Below are positions 3,869 through 32,528 of a stretch of 64,000 nucleotides of DNA, piece after piece; within the stretch, counting starts at the first letter, position 1; every line of letters begins with the position of its first letter. A program made the position numbers and the translations under genes. Under the pieces are notes generated by a model. That model was not told the DNA's origin. It did no database searches and saw only the letters and a list, made by a program, of their open reading frames with translations. The stretch is from a virus. The stretch is from positions 32,001-96,000 of the IMG/VR virus record IMGVR_UViG_3300045988_108212; one strand, written 5' to 3'.

Positions 3869-4480
3869 ATGATAGAAAATTGGAATATTATAATTAATTT
3901 TTTATCTCAACATGGGGCTGCATTGACAGTGTTTGTCTTTGCGGTTCTTTTGTTTGCAGATAAAATTTTTGATGTCACTTCCAAATTAAACGAAAAGTTT
4001 GGTTTTGAGACACGTGCTTCGTTAGAAAAGAAACATCAAAAAGAAGTGATTGAACAACAACGCTTAATGATCGATAAGCATACAGAAACTTTGGATAAAC
4101 TAACACAGATTTTGAGCAATCAGAATAAAGATATTCAAGTTATCAAAGACATGATGAGAGAGCAAGCCGCATTATTAACAGACCAAAAGGTAGGCATGGA
4201 ACGACTATTTGCACATACAGCTGAACTGGCTAAAAAATTAGATGATGCGTGCGCAATGGACGTTGCTTTATCTGAAGGTGTTGCTGCAATGCTAAGAGAT
4301 AGAATCAAACAAGCCCACAGATATTACAAGCAAAAAGGTTGTATTTCCCCTACGGGGCTTGAAAACATCAATGCTATTTATAAGGTATACCATGACCAAT
4401 TACATCAAAATGGCGTTGGAGAAAAAATGTATAACGAAATTAAAGCATTGCCTATTAAGGATGAAGAGTCATTCTTGTAG
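3869..4480 (+). CDS. Membrane-anchored coiled-coil protein
   Basis: SD GAGGT upstream. N-terminal TM segment AALTVFVFAVLLFA followed by heptad-rich sequence. Confidence 0.5.
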   Translation: MIENWNIIINFLSQHGAALTVFVFAVLLFADKIFDVTSKLNEKFGFETRASLEKKHQKEVIEQQRLMIDKHTETLDKLTQILSNQNKDIQVIKDMMREQAALLTDQKVGMERLFAHTAELAKKLDDACAMDVALSEGVAAMLRDRIKQAHRYYKQKGCISPTGLENINAIYKVYHDQLHQNGVGEKMYNEIKALPIKDEESFL

Positions 4481-4510
4481 GTCTTTTTTATTGCAAAGGA
4501 GGATTGCATT

Positions 4511-4924
4511 ATGAACAAATTTAAAGAATTTTTGGCAAGTATTAATTGGAGTGAAGTTAAACCACATACTGTTGTAAGTCTGATTTTACAGGTGTTGGCG
4601 TGGATCAATATGGGATTAACTGCGGCAGGCAAACCAGTGATTGACGTACATGAAGATGTAATTAACCAAGTAGTTGGTATTGCTTTTGTAGTTGGAACAT
4701 CTCTGTATGGAGATTGGAAAAATCATAGTTTTACATGGACAGCTCAGTTTGCAGATGAAATTGCTTACGCTCTGAGAGACGGTAGATTAACTCTTGAAGA
4801 GGCTGAGGAAATCAAGAATAAGATTGGTCAAAAAGATGTGATCGTAAAAGTTGATAAGGATTTATTTGAAAAAGAATTAGATGATGTTACTGAAGGCAAA
4901 GAATCTGATGACATTGTTGGATAA
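4511..4924 (+). CDS. Putative holin (phi LC3 / XhlB-like family)
   Basis: SD AAGGAGG upstream. Two hydrophobic segments and the motif GDWKNHSFTWTAQ, which resembles the W-KNN-sFT hallmark of that holin family. Lies just upstream of the endolysin. Confidence 0.55.
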   Translation: MNKFKEFLASINWSEVKPHTVVSLILQVLAWINMGLTAAGKPVIDVHEDVINQVVGIAFVVGTSLYGDWKNHSFTWTAQFADEIAYALRDGRLTLEEAEEIKNKIGQKDVIVKVDKDLFEKELDDVTEGKESDDIVG

Positions 4925-4964
4925 TTTGCTAAGTGAGTAATTAGTTATTGAATAATTAGTTATT

Positions 4965-4996
4965 GAGCAGTTGCTGTTATGGTGACTGCTCTTTTT
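4965..4996 (+). terminator. Rho-independent terminator between holin and endolysin
   Basis: GAGCAGT (4965-4971) / ACTGCTC (4985-4991) followed by TTTTT. Same stem sequence as the terminator at 2051. Confidence 0.6.
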
Positions 4997-5022
4997 AGAT
5001 AAAAGAAAGGAGCCTGATATTT

Positions 5023-5754
5023 ATGGCATTAAAATTTAAAACAAGAACGGCAAAGAGCGTGAGCTACGGAAGTAAACGTAGCACGAGTTCTATTAAGTTT
5101 ATTGTAATCCATTTCACAGGGAATGACGGAGATTCCGCTAAGAACAATGCAGATTATTTTGCCACTGGTAATACGAGAGCTGCTGGGGCACACTATTTCA
5201 TTGATGAGGGAGATATTGTATGGAAATCTGTTCCTGTTAATCGAGTAGCATGGGCAGTTGGAGGATTTGTTACAAATGCTAATGGAGGTGCAAAATTTTA
5301 TAAGATTTGTACTAATGCAAACAGTCTAAGCATTGAAATGGCTAATTCTGTAGGAAGTGTTCCTAAGGCTACATATAAAAATGCTGTTAGTCTAACTAAA
5401 AAACTTATGAAAAAATACAATATTCCTGCCAGTCATGTTCTAAGGCACAATGATGTATCGGGAAAACAGTGCCCAGAACCTTGGTGTGGAAAAAATAATA
5501 AACAGTGGGCTAAATTCAAAGCAGACATTTCTGGTTCTACAGTAGTAAAACCAAAAGCATCTTCTAAGTTTAAATCATACAAAGTAAAAGTAACTGCTTC
5601 TGCTCTTAAGGTGCGTAAATCTCCATCTACGACGGCTGCTATTGCCAAAGATGCCTATAAGAAAGGCACAACAGTTACAATCAAAGCTGTTAAGAATGGT
5701 TGGGGTAAAACTAAAGATGGTTGGATTAAACTGTCTTATACAAAGAAATGTTAA
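5023..5754 (+). CDS. Endolysin: N-acetylmuramoyl-L-alanine amidase (Amidase_2/PGRP type) with C-terminal SH3b-like wall-binding domain
   Basis: IVIHFTGNDGDSAKNNADYF..AGAHYFIDEGDIV..NRVAWAVGG..SIEM..VLRHNDVSGKQCP amidase motifs. C-terminal YKVKVTASALKVRKSPS..GWGKTKDGWIKLSY. Confidence 0.85.
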   Translation: MALKFKTRTAKSVSYGSKRSTSSIKFIVIHFTGNDGDSAKNNADYFATGNTRAAGAHYFIDEGDIVWKSVPVNRVAWAVGGFVTNANGGAKFYKICTNANSLSIEMANSVGSVPKATYKNAVSLTKKLMKKYNIPASHVLRHNDVSGKQCPEPWCGKNNKQWAKFKADISGSTVVKPKASSKFKSYKVKVTASALKVRKSPSTTAAIAKDAYKKGTTVTIKAVKNGWGKTKDGWIKLSYTKKC

Positions 5755-15983: not shown

Positions 15984-16313
15984 TTATTTCTCTTGTTTCT
16001 TTTTGCTATAGTCACAGTCAATCGTAATTTTGATCCGTTTGATTATAGATGAATTCTCGTATTCGGTAACGTCTCTTGTTATTGAACCATTACACTTTTC
16101 ACACTGCTGCGAGTGTCTTGCTATCATATTTAACGTAACAGCCGCCATCTCTGCACATCTATGGCAAACATCTACCTCAGAAGAACCAAGAACTGACTGA
16201 TCAGGGCTATTGATTCCAAGGTATTCAACTGTTGGTATTGTTAATTTATGATGTTTGTCGGTACACTCTTTGTTGCAGAAATCACAGTAATATTTTGTTT
16301 CTGTTTTCTTCAT
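15984..16313 (-). CDS. Zinc-ribbon protein, paralogue A
   Basis: YYCDFCNKECT..CHRCA; similar to the neighbouring 16347-16712. Confidence 0.55.
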   Translation of the reverse strand: MKKTETKYYCDFCNKECTDKHHKLTIPTVEYLGINSPDQSVLGSSEVDVCHRCAEMAAVTLNMIARHSQQCEKCNGSITRDVTEYENSSIIKRIKITIDCDYSKKKQEK

Positions 16314-16346: not shown

Positions 16347-16712
16347 TCATTCATCATATTCAATCGTCATTGTGTGTTCTGTTTTTGGATAACGATTACG
16401 GCTTGCAAATGAACCAATAGTGTCAATGTATGGGATCGCAAACTTATCTTGTTTGGCAGTTTGTTTAATTCCAACCTCATTCTTGCAAGCGTTTGAAAGA
16501 AATGTATTTATCCGAGCATTTATCCTCATGCATTTACCGCACAAATCTAATCGTTGGATTATAATAGAATTGTCATCTGGCTCGCCTGCACAGAATCTGC
16601 TTGAATATCCATTGGATGTAATGAAAGGGAGCGTAATGTCATAGTGATTGTGTGTACATTCAGCCCCACAAAAATCACAATAATATTCTTCAATTGTTTT
16701 TTCTTTCTTCAT
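16347..16712 (-). CDS. Zinc-ribbon protein, paralogue B
   Basis: YYCDFCGAECT..CGKCM; similar to 15984-16313. Confidence 0.55.
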   Translation of the reverse strand: MKKEKTIEEYYCDFCGAECTHNHYDITLPFITSNGYSSRFCAGEPDDNSIIIQRLDLCGKCMRINARINTFLSNACKNEVGIKQTAKQDKFAIPYIDTIGSFASRNRYPKTEHTMTIEYDE

Positions 16713-17707: not shown

Positions 17708-18348
17708 GAGTGCACTCTCTCTACTAGTACATCTGATCTAAATGTACATACTGGACGAATGTTAAAAGACTCCGCACAATAACATTGTTTGACAACACCA
17801 CATGTATCAACAGCACAAATAGCTGAACAATTTTCTTCTGATACGGCAGTTAATAATACCCATTCAATATGACCTGGAAATTTTGTTGGGTACTCTAAAT
17901 ACTCCCTGTATAGCCTATATTCGTCTAAAGTTAGTAAAGAAACTTTATCAATACTTATTTCATTCGCCATTGTTCCATCAAGTGCCATTAAATCACGTTC
18001 CATATACTGCAACACATCATGATGACAATTATCTTCAATTTCACATCCGATATATTTTAAATCGTGACGAAGACGACTAGGTTCCCATCTGTTACAATAT
18101 GTGTCGAATGGCTTTGTATCACTCAAAAAATCTTTCATGATGCAAAAACAAGTTTGAGCATATTTAAACTGATTTAATACGATCCATTCATACCCTGCTA
18201 CCTTAAAGGTATCACCAGCATTTAATGTTTGAAGCTCTACTTTTTCTGAGGTACAATCATTTTCTTCCGACTTCATCATGTCTTTATCTTCAATTACTTT
18301 TACGACCGCCTTGGCAATGTCATAAATATCTTCTTTATCTAACGTCAA
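17704..18348 (-). CDS. Hypothetical protein (DUF6273-like pattern)
   Basis: GYEWIVLN..W..SRLRHDL..VSLLTLDEY..IRPVCTF resembles that Firmicute domain, from recollection. Confidence 0.45.
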   Translation of the reverse strand: MTLDKEDIYDIAKAVVKVIEDKDMMKSEENDCTSEKVELQTLNAGDTFKVAGYEWIVLNQFKYAQTCFCIMKDFLSDTKPFDTYCNRWEPSRLRHDLKYIGCEIEDNCHHDVLQYMERDLMALDGTMANEISIDKVSLLTLDEYRLYREYLEYPTKFPGHIEWVLLTAVSEENCSAICAVDTCGVVKQCYCAESFNIRPVCTFRSDVLVERVHS

Positions 18349-19348
18349 GTTTTCTCTCCTTTACAAATTTTCTATATTGTTTTGTATACTCATAAGAATC
18401 TTTAAATATATTACAGATACCGTTATACATTCTTGGCTCAAATTGTTTGACGATATCAAGTTCGTTTTGATAATCTTTACCGAACGGACACCCACAACAG
18501 CCTGTCCTTTTTAACCCATATCTGCTATAACAATCCGAGTGACTAATCTTAAAATATGCACAATATTCTGATTTGTCGCTATCCAAATACCAAAAAATTG
18601 GTCTATATTGATCACACTGCCCGACTTTTTTATCAAAACAGCTTTTATATCTTGATGCCCTTACTCCGCCTTCGGCTTTCCGAACACCTACAATACTTAG
18701 ATCGTACCCATTGTCTTTTATTGCTTTATGAGATACATCTTTCTTAGCATAGTTACAACACTTCCCAGAAATCTTAAATTGCGGTGGATTCTGGACTATA
18801 AATTCTTTTAAAAATCTGTTGTAGTTAATGTTGAAACTACTCAATCTTTTGCCATTATTTAATGTACCGTGTGAATCACACCACCACATAAGAGCAGATT
18901 TGCACTTCGGATACTTCTTGTATAAATCATCAAATGGTTTGTCTTCCCATTGGAATCCGTGACCTTGCAATCTATACATCATTTCGCTGACATACTTGGA
19001 CATAAATGGTTGCCCATATATCTTGCACGATAACGGAATTGCTTTAATTGCTTTCTGTCGGATGATCTCAATACCATATTTGGTTTCAAGATATTTCAGA
19101 TGATCTTTAGTTGCTTGATACTCTAAACCAGTATCAAACCACATGTAATCAACCTTGTTATGTATGTCGCATTTCCATATAATGTCTAGCATCACATCAC
19201 TGTCAGCTCCGCCAGAAATTGAGCATAAAATCTTTTTATAATCAGTTCTGTTTATAATTGACCATGCCCGAATCATGTTGTCACAAATTGTCTTGTTTAC
19301 AGGGCATGTGCCCAATAATTCATCAATATTCTTAGGTTTCTTAACCAA
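18335..19348 (-). CDS. PAPS reductase-like PP-loop enzyme, copy 1 (TTG start)
   Basis: PP-loop SISGGADS. C-terminal cysteine motif RTGCCGCPFG. The TTG at 19346-19348 lies 8 nt after GAGG. Confidence 0.7.
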   Translation of the reverse strand: MVKKPKNIDELLGTCPVNKTICDNMIRAWSIINRTDYKKILCSISGGADSDVMLDIIWKCDIHNKVDYMWFDTGLEYQATKDHLKYLETKYGIEIIRQKAIKAIPLSCKIYGQPFMSKYVSEMMYRLQGHGFQWEDKPFDDLYKKYPKCKSALMWWCDSHGTLNNGKRLSSFNINYNRFLKEFIVQNPPQFKISGKCCNYAKKDVSHKAIKDNGYDLSIVGVRKAEGGVRASRYKSCFDKKVGQCDQYRPIFWYLDSDKSEYCAYFKISHSDCYSRYGLKRTGCCGCPFGKDYQNELDIVKQFEPRMYNGICNIFKDSYEYTKQYRKFVKERKLDVR

Positions 19349-19525
19349 ATGTACTTCCTCACGAAAATTTATTTCGTTTTCCGTGAGGTAAAGCCATACT
19401 TGGTGAGTGTCTTTTTACATCACTATCACATTACTTTTTCGATACAATCTAACCAACGATCCGTTGAATCATATCTTCGTGAAAACCTTTATATTCTAAA
19501 GGTAATTAGCACAGATGGTTGAAGC
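19349..19525 (-). promoter_or_regulatory. 177-nt structured leader with SD-sequestering hairpin (19357-19388)
   Basis: Stops in the frame read through from the upstream gene (TAG, TGA, TAA) and no SD-preceded ORF found. CCTCACG/CGTGAGG stem, extendable to 11 bp, whose 3' arm holds the SD GAGG. Additional hairpins ACCTTTA/TAAAGGT and CAACG/CGTTG. Confidence 0.55.
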
Positions 19526-19882
19526 CTAACCAATCGGCAGCACAGCGTCTCCGATATATTTCATATCTAAGATTTCGCAATCTTTCATTGGATGATCTGG
19601 ATTCTCATTATTGTAATCTCTTACAAACATATCGAGCCAAAAATCAGAATACTCGTTATCATCTTTTGAGTTGAATACTGCATATCTGTATGCATTTTTA
19701 TAGTTTCCCTTTGCTGTAAAATATGCTAGTTTGATTTGATATACTGGCAATTCTATTCTTGTTTTGATAAAGTTCTTTGGGTGTGTATCACGTAGCTTAG
19801 ATCGTAATTCTTCATCAAAAATTTCAACTGTATCAATTCCTGTTCTGATAGCGCATTCATCAAAAAATCGGTTAGGATGCAC
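19526..19882 (-). CDS. Small protein, paralogue of 22548-22871
   Basis: IKLAYFTAKGNYKNAYRYAV..NENPDHPMKDCEILDMKYIGDAVLPIG vs YRYKTARGNDKTATKYMI..NEKHPERKLSNVEILDSTFLGKVYIPLE. Confidence 0.6.
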   Translation of the reverse strand: MHPNRFFDECAIRTGIDTVEIFDEELRSKLRDTHPKNFIKTRIELPVYQIKLAYFTAKGNYKNAYRYAVFNSKDDNEYSDFWLDMFVRDYNNENPDHPMKDCEILDMKYIGDAVLPIG

Positions 19883-19916
19883 TGCTTTTCACCACCTTTC
19901 TATCTTATTTTATATA

Positions 19917-20138
19917 TCAAACGTCGATTCTATAATTGCACTGCGGACATGTAATGTGACCGAATGCTTCAACATCTGGACAATCTATAATATATCCATG
20001 TCCAGTATCCCATGGAGAATTTTGACACCTACATACATCTTCCATTTCATAACTTAAAACTGCGCCACAATTTTTACAGGTTGTCTTTTTCTTTGTTCCT
20101 TCTTTTAAAATTTCAATCATTTGCCAATCTCTCCCCAT
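19917..20138 (-). CDS. Small zinc-ribbon protein
   Basis: CKNCG..CPQC pairs. Confidence 0.5.
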   Translation of the reverse strand: MGRDWQMIEILKEGTKKKTTCKNCGAVLSYEMEDVCRCQNSPWDTGHGYIIDCPDVEAFGHITCPQCNYRIDV

Positions 20139-20581
20139 CGTGGTGTAACAGAAAATACGCTAAAACTTGGGCAATTGTCATCATATGTAATAGAAGAAAT
20201 CGTCCATCCTTTGATCAACTCTTCAGCGTAATCAAGATCATCTTCTTCATAATATAATCTGTCATACTCGTATACTGCGTTGTCACTATTCAACCAATTA
20301 ATGATAATCTCTATCAACATATTGAAAGATGGTTTCATAATATCTCCAGACAATACAATATCCCACTGTTTCATATATTCTTCATCTAAAGCATCGTCAT
20401 CTCTGTTTTTTGTCGGTATCCATCCAAAGTATAACTTTCCGTCTACTTCTTTAATTCCACGTAATTCATCTGCTGTTTCTCCATAAATATCAACAATGAA
20501 TCTCAATGTCTTTTCCAACGTCCCGTTAAATGTATCTTTTAGACTTCCCGATACTATGAAAGGTTTATCGTTCGTGAACAT
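20117..20581 (-). CDS. Hypothetical protein
   Basis: Co-directional ORF. Confidence 0.5.
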   Translation of the reverse strand: MFTNDKPFIVSGSLKDTFNGTLEKTLRFIVDIYGETADELRGIKEVDGKLYFGWIPTKNRDDDALDEEYMKQWDIVLSGDIMKPSFNMLIEIIINWLNSDNAVYEYDRLYYEEDDLDYAEELIKGWTISSITYDDNCPSFSVFSVTPRWGEIGK

Positions 20582-20637
20582 ACGCTTACCACTCCTTTCG
20601 CAAATTAAATATTTCTTTTATGTAAATTGATTATTTC

Positions 20638-20862
20638 CTATGAAATAAGTACCACTGATCCAGAAATAAGCGTTCCGTTATCCAAGACAATGTCCTGAAC
20701 GTCAATTTCTTTTAAAGTGGTAATTGTTTCGTTATACGTATTAATTCCACTTATTATAATCAAGTCTTTATCAAATTTTTCTAGCTTAGAGATAAGATCT
20801 CTTACTGTAACAGGGTTGCGTCCAAAGACCCCATAGTCTTCTCTTGTTAATTTTTTAGACAT
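20638..20862 (-). CDS. Small hypothetical protein
   Basis: TVRDLISKLEKFDKD motif, shared with 20872-21057 (TVGQLKKELEKYSDD). Confidence 0.45.
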   Translation of the reverse strand: MSKKLTREDYGVFGRNPVTVRDLISKLEKFDKDLIIISGINTYNETITTLKEIDVQDIVLDNGTLISGSVVLIS

Positions 20863-20871
20863 AAATCCTCC

Positions 20872-21057
20872 TTAACAAATTCTCACAATCCTACAATTGC
20901 GATAACCTATTCCATAATCGATTGTGATAGTGTCGTCTTCAATTGTTTCAGCAAATTCGTCTTCCATATCGCAACCGAACAATACTGGCGTATCATCTGA
21001 ATATTTTTCTAACTCTTTTTTAAGCTGTCCAACTGTTATATAATTTGGTTCTTCCAA
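20872..21057 (-). CDS. Small hypothetical protein
   Basis: Similar N-terminal motif to 20638-20862. Confidence 0.45.
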   Translation of the reverse strand: MEEPNYITVGQLKKELEKYSDDTPVLFGCDMEDEFAETIEDDTITIDYGIGYRNCRIVRIC

Positions 21058-21069
21058 TTTAATCTCCTT

Positions 21070-22350
21070 TCAAAATAACTCACATCCTGCTTGTCTAAAC
21101 ATATCAATCTGATAATTCCATGCTTCAAAATCCCAACCATATTCTTTCATAAAACATTTCTTACAATAAAATTTCTCAATGTTTCTGCCATGTAATTTAA
21201 GATTCATACTCAAAACTTCTTTGTGTTTAATTCGTTTACCGCAGCAATCACATACTTTGTTAAAATATTTAATTGCCACTTTCTGATCAATTCCAGAATA
21301 TTCAGCAAACTCATTTATAACTTCTTTTGTTGGCTCATTCCTAAATGTTCCACCGTTCCAAGCTTGCGTTAAATATTCGTCCAATGTGCAATTCATAATA
21401 ATCCATTTCTTATTGCTTATAAAATCTTCTTTGAGAATATCTCTCCATCTTTGGTACGATTTCAGATACCAATATTTGTCAAGAATCCATGTAGATTTCG
21501 TATAAAATGGGCAAGCACAATGGCATCCAACTCTGGAATATCCTTTCTTATACTTAGGATTAACAGGAATATTTCTCCATATTGTATACAGCCAGATATC
21601 AAGCTCTGTCCATTTTCTAATAGGTAGAATTCCTTGCCAACAAGTCTTGCCCCATTCGGCTTTGTTAACCCATTCATCCTCATAAGAACTTCTTGTATTT
21701 GATTCTTCATTTCTCATTCCCATCCACAATAAATACGGATGATCATGGTCAAGTTGTGATGTCATCACGCCTGTTTTGAAAATTCTACAACAAAATCTTG
21801 AAAACCTAGTTGGAATCATATGATCAGATGCTACATATTGATAGAATCCTTTGTCTGGATTCATGATTTCACAATTCGTAAACTCTTTTACCATTTGATA
21901 TGTGTCTGCACAATCTAAGGATGTATTGTTAAATATTGCTTTTGTATCAGGATATAAACTTCTCACAAGATGACATGTAACTATAGAATCTTTTCCCATT
22001 GACACAGGAATAATCGAAGTATAGTTCTCGTATTTCTGCATCCTTTCTTTGATTAGATTCAATGACTCAGATTCAATTTGAATTAAATGTTCTTTATTTA
22101 AGTCGATTAGTTCTTTCCAACTGATTAAATCTATATCCTGTACGTTTTCATATGTTTTTAGTTTTTTAATTTCAACAGCTTCTAAATCATTAGAAACAAC
22201 AACTTTGTAAAATTTATGTATATTTCCTTGCTTGTCAAATCCTTTAATGATCTGTCTGTTAAGCCAAAAATATCCTTCTTTTAAATCTGGTAATTTTTCA
22301 CCAGACATTTCTCTTAAAAAATTAATATATCCATCATAGATTGGATTCAA
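21070..22350 (-). CDS. PAPS reductase-like PP-loop enzyme, copy 2 (IbrA/DUF3440-like length; TTG start)
   Basis: PP-loop-like VSMGKDS. RVGCHCACPF cysteine motif. C-terminal CDCCG..CKKC ribbon. TTG at 22348-22350 follows AAAGGAAG. Confidence 0.65.
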   Translation of the reverse strand: MNPIYDGYINFLREMSGEKLPDLKEGYFWLNRQIIKGFDKQGNIHKFYKVVVSNDLEAVEIKKLKTYENVQDIDLISWKELIDLNKEHLIQIESESLNLIKERMQKYENYTSIIPVSMGKDSIVTCHLVRSLYPDTKAIFNNTSLDCADTYQMVKEFTNCEIMNPDKGFYQYVASDHMIPTRFSRFCCRIFKTGVMTSQLDHDHPYLLWMGMRNEESNTRSSYEDEWVNKAEWGKTCWQGILPIRKWTELDIWLYTIWRNIPVNPKYKKGYSRVGCHCACPFYTKSTWILDKYWYLKSYQRWRDILKEDFISNKKWIIMNCTLDEYLTQAWNGGTFRNEPTKEVINEFAEYSGIDQKVAIKYFNKVCDCCGKRIKHKEVLSMNLKLHGRNIEKFYCKKCFMKEYGWDFEAWNYQIDMFRQAGCELF

Positions 22351-22547
22351 TTGTAATCTTCCTTTAACTTTTGGATTTTACCCATCCGTTAAAGGTGTTT
22401 ATCTTATACTTAGATACCAATTGTCTTAGGTCATGGCGTAAGATTTTACGTTTTAGCCATCATTGTCGCTATGTTTCATGGGTAATGCATGACATCTCAC
22501 TATACAACCCTGATTACAGGGAATTGATCACAATTGAGTTTTTATAT
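22351..22547 (-). promoter_or_regulatory. 197-nt structured leader with SD-sequestering hairpin (22361-22395)
   Basis: CCTTTAAC/GTTAAAGG perfect 8-bp stem whose 3' arm holds the SD. Nested GGAT/ATCC hairpin. Additional hairpins CCTG/CAGG and ATGGC..CGTAA/TTACG..GCCAT. Confidence 0.55.
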
Positions 22548-22871
22548 TTATTCAAGTGGAATATATACTTTTCCAAGAAATGTACTATCAAGAATTTCTA
22601 CATTTGATAGTTTTCTTTCTGGGTGTTTTTCATTGAACTCAGTAATATAATTTTTAAATTCATTGTCAATCATATCCCACGAAAATTCTTCTAAAATCAT
22701 ATACTTTGTTGCCGTCTTATCGTTGCCACGAGCAGTTTTATAGCGATACAGGACTTTCCAAATTGGAATTGGAATCTGATTACTTATAATCTGCTTTGGG
22801 TGGCAGTTTGTAAATTCTTCCAAATCACTATTGTTATATGTGCAATTTAATTGCAGTTCCGAAATTTTCAC
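22548..22871 (-). CDS. Small protein, paralogue of 19526-19882 (GTG start)
   Basis: See the 19526-19882 entry. Same position relative to a PAPS-reductase-like gene. Confidence 0.6.
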   Translation of the reverse strand: MKISELQLNCTYNNSDLEEFTNCHPKQIISNQIPIPIWKVLYRYKTARGNDKTATKYMILEEFSWDMIDNEFKNYITEFNEKHPERKLSNVEILDSTFLGKVYIPLE

Positions 22872-23868: not shown

Positions 23869-24262
23869 CTCTAAATATTTCTTCTGGCATAGTAAATGAT
23901 GGATTATTATTTACAAACGCCATATAATATTGATCTAATACATATTCATTTTCTTCGCTTTCATTATCATAGAAACAAAATAGTCCCAAACGTATAGCTT
24001 CAAGATGGAATAAAAATTCTTCTTTAGAAAATTCCCCTCGACGCACTCTTTGTTGTAATTCATCTCTTATAATAGGCAGACGATTTTGACGAATGCCTCT
24101 GTTTTTGCTTAATTCACATTGTTTGTATACAAAACATAAATGCATCGAATTCATGTTTTTGATATATCTCATTACACCATTTATATCTGTCCATACATTG
24201 TTGTCCCATACACCTTTTCGTTCCATGTAATCATCAAACATATAAATCCTTTCTAATTCCAC
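23852..24262 (-). CDS. Hypothetical protein
   Basis: Co-directional ORF overlapping both neighbours. Confidence 0.5.
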   Translation of the reverse strand: MELERIYMFDDYMERKGVWDNNVWTDINGVMRYIKNMNSMHLCFVYKQCELSKNRGIRQNRLPIIRDELQQRVRRGEFSKEEFLFHLEAIRLGLFCFYDNESEENEYVLDQYYMAFVNNNPSFTMPEEIFRGDSDV

Positions 24263-25127
24263 TCAAAATCCATTCAATTACTGGCTCTGTCCACCCATTG
24301 CCCATCAGACTACATCTTTTTGAATAACTTAAACTCCTGCTACCCATCTTAATATTTGTGTAATTATCAGGTAGTCCTTGTAATCTTTCGTACTCAATTG
24401 CCGTTAATTTTCTTGGCGTACCATGATCCAAAACTTTCTTTTCTTGATACCCACCATTTATACAAGTCAGTGTGCAACATTTAAACTCTGGGTTGTATAT
24501 TCTGCGATTCATTTCAAAAGTATTGACTTTTAGTTCACCACAGACACGTTTGTCCATATCTAATATTTCAAATGATTTGTTATAAAAATACTTTTGTGAT
24601 ACATCCGACTCCATAATATCCTTTAGTACCAATGAATTTTGCCTTGTTGGCAACGAATTAAGTGGAATATTTGTCCAATAATACCTTTCTCTTGACTGAG
24701 CACTGAATAATGCCGAATCAATCAAGATCGGATCAACACCAATGCAGTCAGTCATTTCTTTTAAATCATCATCATGTGACGGAATCACATTTTCAAACAT
24801 AAACCATTTAGGTTTTATAGTATTTAATGCTTCAACAGCTTTGTAAAAAATCCCAGATTTACCATTCAGTCCAGCATTTACATCTTTATCTTCAATACGC
24901 ACTCTTGATAGACTCTGGCAGCATGTACCAGCTAGGATCAGATCAAATCCTTCAAACTGTTTAAAATCTGCTTCATATAAATCGCCATGATGTATAATAA
25001 ATGGAAAATGATACGATGAAACCGCAATGGCTTCTGGTAGAATTTCATATGTATGATATTCTTCAATTGGAATATCAAGTTGTTGTAAAGCATATAATCC
25101 TGTTTCTACACCGCCACATAAACTCAA
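24234..25127 (-). CDS. DNA (cytosine-5)-methyltransferase
   Basis: Motif I LSLCGGVETG, motif IV GTCCQSLS, FMFENV, QSRERYYW, RKLTAIEYERLQGLPDNYT and GNGWTEPVI. TTG start; a TGA lies 11 codons upstream. Confidence 0.85.
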   Translation of the reverse strand: MSLCGGVETGLYALQQLDIPIEEYHTYEILPEAIAVSSYHFPFIIHHGDLYEADFKQFEGFDLILAGTCCQSLSRVRIEDKDVNAGLNGKSGIFYKAVEALNTIKPKWFMFENVIPSHDDDLKEMTDCIGVDPILIDSALFSAQSRERYYWTNIPLNSLPTRQNSLVLKDIMESDVSQKYFYNKSFEILDMDKRVCGELKVNTFEMNRRIYNPEFKCCTLTCINGGYQEKKVLDHGTPRKLTAIEYERLQGLPDNYTNIKMGSRSLSYSKRCSLMGNGWTEPVIEWILSGIRKDLYV

Positions 25128-31967: not shown

Positions 31968-32528
31968 TTAGTTTTCAGTTGCTGTTTCTGACGATTCCTC
32001 TACGACCTCAGCAGAATCATCATCTACATATTCAATATCTTCTTCTTTTACTTTTGTTGCAGGGTCGAGTCTTTCATAATCCTCTTCTGTGGCTGGCTCT
32101 GTTTTAACAGTTCCACATTTTTCGCAATAAGTTGTCCAATGATATCCATTCTCTTCATCATATGCAATTGTTTTTTCTGCCCACACATGATCACAGGTTT
32201 CATCTGCGTCATCTGGGTATTCTGGTTCTGTATAATCTGCATCGTCTGTATCGTCTGCGGTAGAATTTTCAGTATTTTTTTCTTCTTCTGTTGTTGCCGA
32301 TACATCATTTGTTGTATCTTTAGAATCTTCTTTGACGGCATTTTTCTTATTATTTTTCTGCTCTGTTGTGTTCTTTGTAGTTTCTGTAGTTGACTTACCT
32401 TCTGTTGTTGCAGAAACCTGTTTATCAGTGTTATTATTTAGTGTATCTGCATAAATAGTATATGCTGAAACGCATCCTACTGCTGTTAACATTAATGCTC
32501 CAGCGATTAATAATTTTTTAATTCTCAT
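31968..32528 (-). CDS. Acidic lipoprotein with C-terminal Cys/His cluster
   Basis: The start at 32528 (MRIKKLLIAGALMLTAVGC) has SD AAAGGAG and a lipobox-like AVGC. T/E/D-rich linker. CDHVW..YCEKCG. Confidence 0.55.
   Translation of the reverse strand: MRIKKLLIAGALMLTAVGCVSAYTIYADTLNNNTDKQVSATTEGKSTTETTKNTTEQKNNKKNAVKEDSKDTTNDVSATTEEEKNTENSTADDTDDADYTEPEYPDDADETCDHVWAEKTIAYDEENGYHWTTYCEKCGTVKTEPATEEDYERLDPATKVKEEDIEYVDDDSAEVVEESSETATEN

Follow-up and report, generated by a model that had tools for sequence, protein, structure and literature searches.

A Structured Leader RNA Family Linked to a Small Gene Upstream of Phage PAPS-Reductase-Like Genes Is a Strong Candidate for a New Translational Control Element

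In the 64,000-nucleotide (nt) stretch of viral DNA analyzed here (referred to as the window; positions 32,001 to 96,000 of IMG/VR record IMGVR_UViG_3300045988_108212), the minus strand carries two modules with the same order of parts: a small open reading frame (ORF), a spacer, and an ORF for a PP-loop enzyme. On the evidence of sequence comparison, both spacers are members of a single structured leader RNA family of about 165 to 225 nt, which is co-transcribed with the minus-strand genes and present at more than 110 related loci. Its fold makes the leader RNA a strong candidate for a new kind of element controlling translation. Leaders that hide a ribosome-binding site are already known as a kind; what is new is this RNA family, its double lock on the Shine-Dalgarno (SD) sequence and the start codon, a kissing contact onto the SD hairpin, and the fixed partnership with a small gene. 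The reading that we rank first, while regarding it as evenly balanced between right and wrong, is a translational gate on the enzyme gene that would be operated by the co-inherited upstream small gene.

Fold and conservation of the two leaders

An earlier note on this DNA had described the two-copy arrangement, and all of its coordinates, motifs, starts, and spacers were confirmed on the minus strand, where all features below lie unless stated otherwise. Module 1 comprises the type-1 small ORF (19526 to 19882; 118 amino acids [aa], GTG start, C-terminus ..AVLPIG followed by TAG), a 177-nt spacer (19525-19349), and enzyme 1 (18335 to 19348; 337 aa, TTG start), a PAPS-reductase/DndC-like protein with the motifs SISGGADS and RTGCCGCPFG. 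Module 2 comprises the type-2 small ORF (22548 to 22871; 107 aa, GTG start overlapping the upstream stop, C-terminus ..IPLE followed by TAA), a 197-nt spacer (22547-22351), and enzyme 2 (21070 to 22350; 426 aa, TTG start), a PAPS-reductase/BrxP-like protein with VSMGKDS and RVGCHCACPF. An in-frame stop upstream makes the TTG the earliest possible enzyme start in both modules.

The type-1 leader RNA (19343 to 19525) consists of the 177-nt spacer and the first 6 coding bases of enzyme 1, which are paired in helix P1. It scored 193.9 bits with R1, a covariance model built from 16 sequences that recovered 86 instances (55 distinct) among the collected loci, diverged ones included. P1 is a 13-bp long-range helix between AACCAUCUGUGCU (19508 to 19520), which starts 5 nt past the small ORF stop codon, and AGUACAUUUGGUU (19343 to 19355), which holds the UUG start codon (19348-19346) and the following codon. 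Compensatory variants of P1 were observed in locus L200 (GGCAAU/AUUGCU, with the second codon changed to CUG) and in L193 (GUC/GAC), and its pairing was retained with an AUG start in L164 and L049. The P2 hairpin CCUUUA..UAAAGG (19486 to 19502), in which pair 35/41 was A-U in 26 sequences and G-C in 25, is followed by a conserved UU. P3 (19441 to 19475) is a long hairpin of 12 bp with a conserved 9-nt loop, GGAUCGUUG (19462-19454; consensus GGAUCRUUG), of which UCGUU kisses AACGA at the tip of the SD hairpin. In the pseudoknot core (19399 to 19429), helix B pairs GUGA (19429-19426) with UCAC (19406-19403) and encloses the 3' strand of helix A, a conserved GUAAA, and the 5' strand of helix C. 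Helix A pairs this GUGAU strand (19423-19419) with UUCAC (19483-19479), and helix C pairs AAGACA (19413-19408) with UGGCUU (19391 to 19396) around a conserved central A.G mismatch; topologically, helix B crosses helix A and helix C crosses helix B. The SD hairpin, P-SD (CCUCACGGAAAA..UUUUCGUGAGG; 19357 to 19388), covers the SD sequence GAGGAAG (19360-19354) and has the apical sequence AACGA (19378-19374).

Across the 55 distinct type-1 sequences, 93.1% of cells held standard pairs, compared with 34 to 47% when the partners were slid by 1 to 3 columns, and compensatory change was found at 36 of 51 pairs, compared with 10 to 18 in the slid controls, all counted on an alignment fitted to R1, which favors the modelled helices. 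Helix B, which lay outside the search model, was 99.5% paired and covaried at two of its four pairs, with the version GUGA/UCAC in the window and GCGA/UCGC, GUGG/CCAC, and CGGU/ACCG in relatives. The kiss between the P3 loop and the P-SD tip, also outside the model, was found as UCAUU/AAUGA (27 sequences), UCGUU/AACGA (18), ACGUU/AACGU (4), and UCGUU/AGCGA (2). Helix A occurred as UUCAC/GUGAU in the window and as GUCAC/GUGAC, GCUGU/GCAGC, and GCCGC/GCGGC in relatives, 11 of the 12 pairs of P-SD covaried, and helix C was invariant within type 1. Frequent G-U pairs make the fold specific to this strand and hence to RNA.

The type-2 leader RNA (22347 to 22547) consists of the 197-nt spacer and the first 4 coding bases of enzyme 2, again paired in P1, and scored 258 bits with the covariance model R2. 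Its P1 joins UCAAUUGUGAUC (22526 to 22537), starting 10 nt past the stop codon, to GAUUACAAUUGA (22347 to 22358), which holds the UUG start codon (22350-22348); the pairing was retained where the start is AUG (L144 and L272). The region from 22471 to 22521 contains the P2 hairpin (22521-22508), the junction UUGUAUAG, and hairpin H3 (22495-22471), whose loop sequence UUACC (within 22487-22481) kisses a GGUAA in the SD hairpin. The pseudoknot (22397 to 22460) includes helix B/H4, which pairs AUGGC (22460-22456) with GCCAU (22437-22433), and helix C, which pairs AUCUUA (22444-22439), inside B/H4, with UAAGAU (22406-22401). An optional hairpin, H5 (22431-22416), lies between B/H4 and the helix C 3' strand, and type 2 also has a short helix, UGU/ACA. 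The SD hairpin CCUUUAAC..GUUAAAGG (22361 to 22395) has the apical GGUAA at 22382-22378, and the SD sequence is AAAGGAAG (22365-22358).

In a plain MAFFT alignment of 16 type-2 sequences, 95.1% of cells were paired, compared with 27 to 43% when slid. With metagenome loci added (27 distinct sequences), the values were 95.7% and 26 to 43%, and 27 of 53 pairs showed compensatory change, compared with 3 to 6 when slid. The type-2 search model contained neither helix C nor the kiss. Helix C was 100% paired, with four covarying pairs and four perfectly complementary variants (AUCUUA/UAAGAU, AUCUUU/AAAGAU, AUUUCA/UGAAAU, and ACUUCA/UGAAGU), and the kiss between H3 and P-SD was found as UUACC/GGUAA (19 sequences), UCACC/GGUGA (5), and UCAUC/GAUGA (1), with UCGC/GCGA recognized by eye in L272. 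Helix B/H4 occurred as GGC/GCC or GGU/ACC. The earlier note had argued for selection on structure from the differing arms of the two SD hairpins in the window. Two paralogous hairpins with differing arms are weak evidence alone, and it is the abundant compensatory change in the relatives that bears the argument out.

The R1 and R2 models did not directly detect each other's members, and the two types were joined by a common core and by intermediate loci. The core runs from the 5' strand of helix B through YGUAAA, six bases of helix C, a C, the 3' strand of helix B, AAGWA, and the other six bases of helix C to P-SD. Both types share the islands GGUU (after P2), AUAGYGAC, YGUAAA, and AAGWAU, and about 40 unpaired positions are invariant in the fold. 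The leader of L277 was matched by both models (56 bits with R1 and 18 bits with R2), and its helix C is AUCACA/UGGGGU with the A.G mismatch retained, while L272 combines a type-2 core with the type-1 apical loop CGAAAUA. L280 and L278 were recognized by eye as further members, and in distant members the kiss was read by eye as UUGC/GCAA and UCAC/GUGA. The short islands that the earlier note had seen in both spacers (TTGTAT, AGTGA.GATG, and ATGGCT) are present but do not correspond in position between the two folds.

Among related phages, the leaders are more strongly conserved than the coding DNA that flanks them. In close relatives, which are contigs of about 150 to 200 kb mostly from one IMG/VR dataset of metagenome assemblies, the spacers had 93 to 100% nucleotide identity and the small proteins went down to 76 to 89% amino acid identity. 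In more distant relatives, leader identity was 67 to 83%, always above that of the coding DNA on either side (57 to 77%). The whole spacers folded better than their shuffles (z of -3.6 for module 1 and -3.4 for module 2), in agreement with the structured leaders proposed earlier. In a comparison with the 4,227 models of Rfam 15, its riboswitch, ribozyme, intron, and leader families all among them, only a tRNA at 63026-63163 reached threshold in the window; over 19250-22700, with E values up to 10, the search returned merely sub-threshold snoRNA and CRISPR-DR noise, and nine divergent relatives gave no match. Conservation, compensatory change, and the lack of an Rfam 15 match thus support the earlier proposal of a candidate new cis-regulatory RNA class unlike known riboswitches, the regulation itself being what we infer.

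That the spacers might instead encode small proteins was not borne out. Antisense ORFs of 57 and 78 aa span the spacers in the window. The one across the type-1 spacer is broken by stops and 1-nt insertions or deletions in relatives, in which no sense ORF is kept, so that type-1 relatives have no conserved ORF on either strand; the type-2 antisense ORF was encountered in one close relative only. No promoter- or terminator-like sites were found inside either leader on the minus strand, and regional counts equaled the shuffle expectation. The P2 hairpin with its following U's was rejected as a terminator, as the U-richness is absent in most relatives.

Masking of the ribosome-binding site and the link to the small gene

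In both types, the SD sequence is paired in the 3' arm of P-SD, and the nucleotides that follow it, together with the start codon, are paired in the 3' strand of P1. Every part of the ribosome-binding site is therefore double-stranded in the fold, and the kiss with P3 or H3 further locks the SD hairpin. The earlier claim of SD-sequestering hairpins at both spacer ends held, with energies for the hairpins alone of -14.0 kcal/mol in module 1 (z of -3.9) and -13.4 kcal/mol in module 2 (z of -3.7); the P1 arms account for -13.1 and -14.7 kcal/mol, respectively. The long-range helix burying the start codon, the pseudoknot, and the kissing loop go beyond that note, whose frame of a thermometer or simple hairpin was right in having the SD paired and too simple for a fold of about 190 nt with a pseudoknot and a kiss. 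An RNA thermometer of the ROSE or fourU kind was rejected on the same grounds, the SD hairpins being both this stable and embedded in such a fold.

Structured ribosome-binding sites of this kind are, according to de Smit and van Duin, reportedly all but closed to free 30S subunits. The SD motif is conserved 7 to 9 nt before the start, and it must therefore be used once the fold loosens. The start codon is UUG in nearly all members and sometimes AUG. The distance from the small ORF stop to P1 is 3 to 9 nt in type 1 and 10 to 14 nt in type 2.

Co-inheritance with the small gene was strict. All 80 of the type-1 leaders with complete flanks had the small ORF before them and the enzyme after them, and all type-2 leaders examined had a type-2 small ORF upstream; the enzyme follows the RNA in all close and most distant relatives, and modules can occur in tandem. 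The small-protein family, which comprised 176 close clusters and 215 clusters at 50% identity, consisted entirely of short proteins or two to three tandem copies, with no fusion to the enzyme. Four of five distant members keep the succession of small gene, a 168- to 224-nt gap, and a PAPS_reduct gene. In P0135 (L276, 2001-2618) and P0226 (L278, 1801-2655), two or three tandem small domains are followed by a gap of about 200 to 220 nt and a PAPS_reduct gene. Where hosts are named they are Lachnospiraceae-type Clostridia, and the leader family is common in large phages of human-gut Clostridia.

The enzyme, by comparison, also occurs on its own. Relatives of enzyme 1 in Clostridium phages CS266P1-4 (56% identity) have neither leader nor small protein, and the same was found for its relatives in two fecal phage contigs that carry no annotation (MT835730 and MT837034) and in Bacillus phage BC-6. 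In CS266P1, the enzyme start overlaps the preceding, unrelated gene by 4 nt; that gene was rejected as a relative of the small protein (hhalign probability of 0.4%). Enzyme relatives that have no leader thus have no small protein either, and the small gene and its RNA form a cassette that is dispensable to the enzyme. A natural deletion in L032 (IMGVR_UViG_3300023498_000020, 4001-5170) removes in frame codons 54 to 118 of the small ORF, the whole type-1 leader, and the first two bases of the TTG. Its product is a 389-aa fusion of the small-protein N-terminus to the enzyme, whose ORF remains open, making it a ready-made leaderless control.

Two further pairs of loci depart from the usual arrangement. 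In L003 (2537-3300) and L036 (IMGVR_UViG_3300045988_128026), the type-2 small ORF and leader are intact, enzyme 2 is cut to 79 aa, and the two ORFs that follow enzyme 2 in the window are absent. In L128 and L129 (700-3700), a stop just past the PP-loop interrupts the enzyme after a type-1 leader, and two more PAPS_reduct genes lie upstream. The 152-nt spacer between PAPS_reduct genes in these loci (1606-1758) has a P2-like hairpin followed by UU and a GUAAAAU motif and gave no R1 match; it may represent an additional kind of leader, one that has no small ORF.

For the cassette as a whole, we propose that the closed fold, with its double-stranded ribosome-binding site, would block independent 30S initiation, and that the enzyme would be made only upon loosening of the fold. 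The small-gene product would most likely bind the RNA, as MS2 coat protein does at the replicase operator, and ribosomes ending the small ORF at the foot of P1 may assist opening. A potentially harmful DNA-modifying enzyme would in this way be held low, with its level tied to that of the small protein. This gate alone explains the obligatory small-gene/RNA cassette, and with the RNA so strictly tied to the small gene, control by a protein or by translation is no less likely than a metabolite riboswitch. Weak hints in favor of binding are the basic beta-hairpin segment conserved in the small-protein family and a marginal resemblance in fold to ribosomal protein eL20/LX. Among the closest known counterparts are the MS2/Qbeta operator and the Min Jou interaction of RNA coliphages, in which the product of an upstream gene is the repressor (here, a candidate one), the element contains the ribosome-binding site of the next gene, and the downstream start is hidden in a long-range helix whose place is set with respect to upstream translation. 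Like protein-bound operators in general, the leader has a candidate regulator that is encoded in the same operon and always co-occurs with the RNA. Unlike the MS2 operator, which is one hairpin of about 20 nt, the leader is a fold of about 190 nt with a pseudoknot and a kiss; the small protein is unrelated to coat proteins, and its binding to the RNA is a candidate interaction only. In the E. coli rpmI-rplT (L35-L20) leader, a pseudoknotted mRNA likewise masks a downstream ribosome-binding site over a long range with a regulator from the same operon. There, however, it is the first cistron that L20 represses, with the effect transmitted by coupling, whereas here the structure lies between the cistrons, and there is no RNA or protein homology.

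Several observations weigh against a gate operated by the small gene. The small-protein family is acidic overall (median isoelectric point of 5.1), and its fold matches found with Foldseek are weak (best E value of 0.03, TM-score of 0.39) and carry no annotated RNA-binding function. One of the five distant small-protein members lacks an enzyme neighbor, and L049 and L275 combine a type-2-like protein with a type-1-like leader, such that the subtypes of protein and RNA track imperfectly. Judging from published positions of the ribosome footprint and helicase, a terminating ribosome would come to rest against P1 and unwind little of it. Even without tertiary support the SD hairpin is stable, and no conserved anti-sequestor that would free the SD was seen in the alignments by eye, the candidate pairing of GUGAYGUAAA with UUUACCUCAC failing in L131. 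Finally, the size, the many invariant unpaired bases, the pseudoknot, and the kissing loop are traits that metabolite riboswitches show more often than most protein operators do.

Alternative readings and known systems

The last point leads to the second-ranked reading, a translational riboswitch sensing a metabolite or ion, which we consider possible but doubtful. Junction and pseudoknot bases would form its pocket, and the ligand, tied to the chemistry of the enzyme (for example a nucleotide, an intermediate of sulfur transfer, or the precursor of a modified base), would stabilize the closed fold and shut off translation; the small gene would then be a co-inherited neighbor or a partner of the enzyme. 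A length of about 180 to 220 nt, a multi-helix junction, an H-type pseudoknot, a loop that kisses the regulatory helix, and the presence of about 40 positions that are unpaired yet invariant all suit such a sensor, as does the conserved A.G mismatch within helix C, and single-stranded islands (GGUU, AUAGYGAC, YGUAAA, and AAGWAU) are what the otherwise diverged types share. Riboswitches are established in phage genomes, and so are riboswitches with the SD in the aptamer or with a regulatory kissing loop (SAM-II, preQ1-II, and cobalamin). With these OFF riboswitches the leader shares a conserved tertiary fold with an H-type pseudoknot directly 5' of the controlled gene and a loop-loop contact (L5-L13 in the cobalamin class) that ties the SD helix to the sensing domain. 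More generally, a structured domain supported by covariation and the pairing of both SD and start codon, as expected of SD-sequestering riboswitches, were found in the leaders. Unlike in the named riboswitches, one helix holds the SD and another the start, the RNA is bound to a small ORF upstream, no Rfam class is matched, and no alternative, ligand-free conformer was seen in the alignments by eye. The riboswitch reading also leaves unexplained that the RNA is never found without the small-protein gene, whereas the enzyme is. The SD hairpin does not need tertiary support to be stable, and a single associated gene family gives little contextual clue to a ligand.

The distances between stop codon and P1 weaken a simple coupling by unwinding and bear on two readings in which ribosomes arriving from the small ORF are the only users of the enzyme start. 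The first is a constitutive coupling or attenuating device with no switch, ranked third and in our judgment unlikely, in which the block would be permanent, the fold would keep the start codon close to the stop of the small ORF, and the enzyme would arise by rare re-initiation after the small ORF, shunt-like across the base of P1, giving a low ratio of enzyme to small protein. It would fit a stop codon that always lies 3 to 14 nt before the P1 5' strand, a start in the outer end of the 3' strand, the weak UUG start of nearly all members, the failure to find an alternative conformer, and the 4-nt stop/start overlap of the leaderless CS266P1 enzyme, which is a classic coupling layout. In MS2 coat/replicase and in E. 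coli rpmI-rplT, translation of a downstream gene is known to be coupled to that of an upstream one through long-range pairing. Such a device, however, needs neither one particular conserved small protein nor a pseudoknot and kiss with many invariant unpaired bases, it does not account for an SD conserved at proper spacing despite permanent pairing, and we know of no documented case of bacterial re-initiation across the base of a helix.

The second such reading, a shunt-like hand-over, is a speculative possibility and a decidedly improbable one. The RNA would be a rigid bridge across whose roughly 180 nt a just-terminated ribosome is handed to the UUG at the foot of P1, possibly with the assistance of the small protein, while the SD stays permanently masked from free 30S subunits, as a prokaryotic counterpart of the caulimovirus shunt. 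In the 35S leader of cauliflower mosaic virus, too, the end of a short ORF lies a few bases ahead of the base of a stable structure, and ribosomes take up translation again on the far side of that base. That likeness is relevant to this speculative reading only, and the plant virus shunt differs in being eukaryotic and cap- and scanning-dependent, with a landing site past the stem and not within it. To our knowledge, ribosome shunting has no bacterial precedent.

Ranked last and very unlikely is an RNA with a function of its own (as a self-cleaving ribozyme, as a stable noncoding RNA released by processing, or as a molecule that the small protein and the enzyme use as cofactor, scaffold, or substrate) whose overlap with the ribosome-binding site is incidental: its complexity is comparable to that of ribozymes and ribonucleoprotein RNAs, protein, RNA, and enzyme are strictly co-inherited, and several PP-loop enzymes (TilS, ThiI, and TtcA) act on RNA, but P1 and the SD hairpin are made of the ribosome-binding site and covary with it, start-codon changes included, enzyme relatives exist without the RNA, the in-frame deletion in L032 drops the leader and leaves the enzyme ORF open, and the window has one copy per type, with none in other contexts.

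Several explanations of another kind were rejected. A repeat joins the stop and start regions (aUUGGUuag and UUGGU in module 1, cUUGAAuaa and UUGAA in module 2). It was rejected as a target-site duplication or a take-off and landing repeat, because the start-side copy varies freely (UUGCU, UUGAC, and AUGG), covarying with the P1 5' strand, and the stop-side copy is fixed by the protein C-terminus. Programmed bypassing of the T4 gene 60 type would, on landing, meet a stop immediately on GGU (module 1) or within four codons on GAA (module 2), and the repeat is lost in L200, L193, and L164. A group I or II intron found no match in Rfam and no long fused homologue among the 176 and 215 clusters of small-protein relatives, and the boundaries of the L032 deletion (C/AUAUUU...CAUUU/G, slashes marking the boundaries) are unlike group I or II sites. 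A split gene, with the small protein as the N-terminal domain of the enzyme, was excluded by the same relatives, which showed just two- and threefold tandem small domains and no fusion. A mobile element does not agree with each type being single-copy in the 64 kb and found in no other context, nor a type III toxin-antitoxin system, with its ToxIN-like repeats, with one non-repetitive element per module.

A parallel from phage counter-defense concerns the Aca proteins. Aca2 and Aca1 bind RNA motifs in the 5' untranslated regions of phage anti-CRISPR operons, and phage PAPS reductases (DndC/SspD homologues) have been named among the regulated anti-defense candidates (PMC13551039). There, as proposed here, a small phage regulator and a structured leader control the translation of a counter-defense-type gene, but the Aca proteins are helix-turn-helix or ribbon-helix-helix binders of DNA and RNA, and the motifs that they bind consist of just one or two simple hairpins where the operon begins, at its 5' end (PMC13551039). 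The small protein of the present modules differs from them in fold, and the leader lies between cistrons and is much more elaborate. No description of the leader RNA was found in full-text literature, a search that did not extend to the supplementary tables of bulk lists of structured-RNA candidates, where the RNA may figure without a name.

Large pseudoknotted leaders with many conserved unpaired bases are usually riboswitches or specific partners in ribonucleoproteins, and each class has revealed a new ligand or regulatory protein. Phage enzymes of the DndC/SspD/BrxP type are suspected of roles in DNA modification and counter-defense, and if the factor that opens the RNA were identified, be it a metabolite or the small protein, this would offer a direct handle on the role of the enzyme and on its tight dose limit. 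Natural variation is sufficient for structure determination, and the leaderless relatives and the leader-deleted fusion provide natural controls.

Proteins of the modules and other features of the window

The small proteins of the two modules are paralogues, as the earlier note had held (28% identity, E value of 1e-15), with no family match in Pfam, PHROG, or NCBIfam. An AF2 model of the type-1 protein (pLDDT of 88.8) has a beta-beta-alpha-beta core, and the family has a conserved beta-hairpin segment with a net charge of +6. A role as sulfur carrier was rejected, the C-termini being ..PIG or ..LE and lacking the terminal GG. The assignment of both enzymes as PAPS-reductase-like was upheld by Pfam PF01507 (PAPS_reduct), with 52 bits (1e-13) for enzyme 1 and 92.5 bits (4e-26) for enzyme 2 against a gathering cut-off of 22.5 bits. 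The PP-loop motif SxGxDS reads SGGADS in enzyme 1 and SMGKDS in enzyme 2, and both match phrog_424, with only marginal similarity to each other. With the PADLOC models, enzyme 2 matched BrxP (1e-34), and enzyme 1 matched BrxP (2e-8) and SspD (6e-6). Assignment as assimilatory CysH/APS reductases was rejected, the scores lying far under the cut-offs of bona fide models.

A DNA cytosine-methyltransferase-like ORF with a TTG start (24234-25127, minus strand) matches the C-terminal part of its PHROG profile only (positions 212-493 of 779). Taken with both PP-loop enzymes, it suggests that the region is a DNA-modification or counter-defense block. Two adjacent, paralogous zinc-ribbon-like ORFs (15984-16313 and 16347-16712, minus strand) both begin with ..YYCDFC, and a third small CxxC..CxxC ORF (19917-20138, minus strand; phrog_2834) is located between the two modules. 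A sub-threshold match to Rfam CRISPR-DR49 (22144-22200, plus strand; 30 bits versus a cut-off of 41, E value of 0.035), on the opposite strand of the enzyme 2 coding region, is probably due to chance. The sequence at 63026-63163 (minus strand) gave 46 bits with the Rfam tRNA model and no tRNA was called by ARAGORN anywhere in the window; at 138 nt, with about 81 nt in place of a 15-nt anticodon arm, it may be an intron-containing, interrupted, or decoy tRNA.

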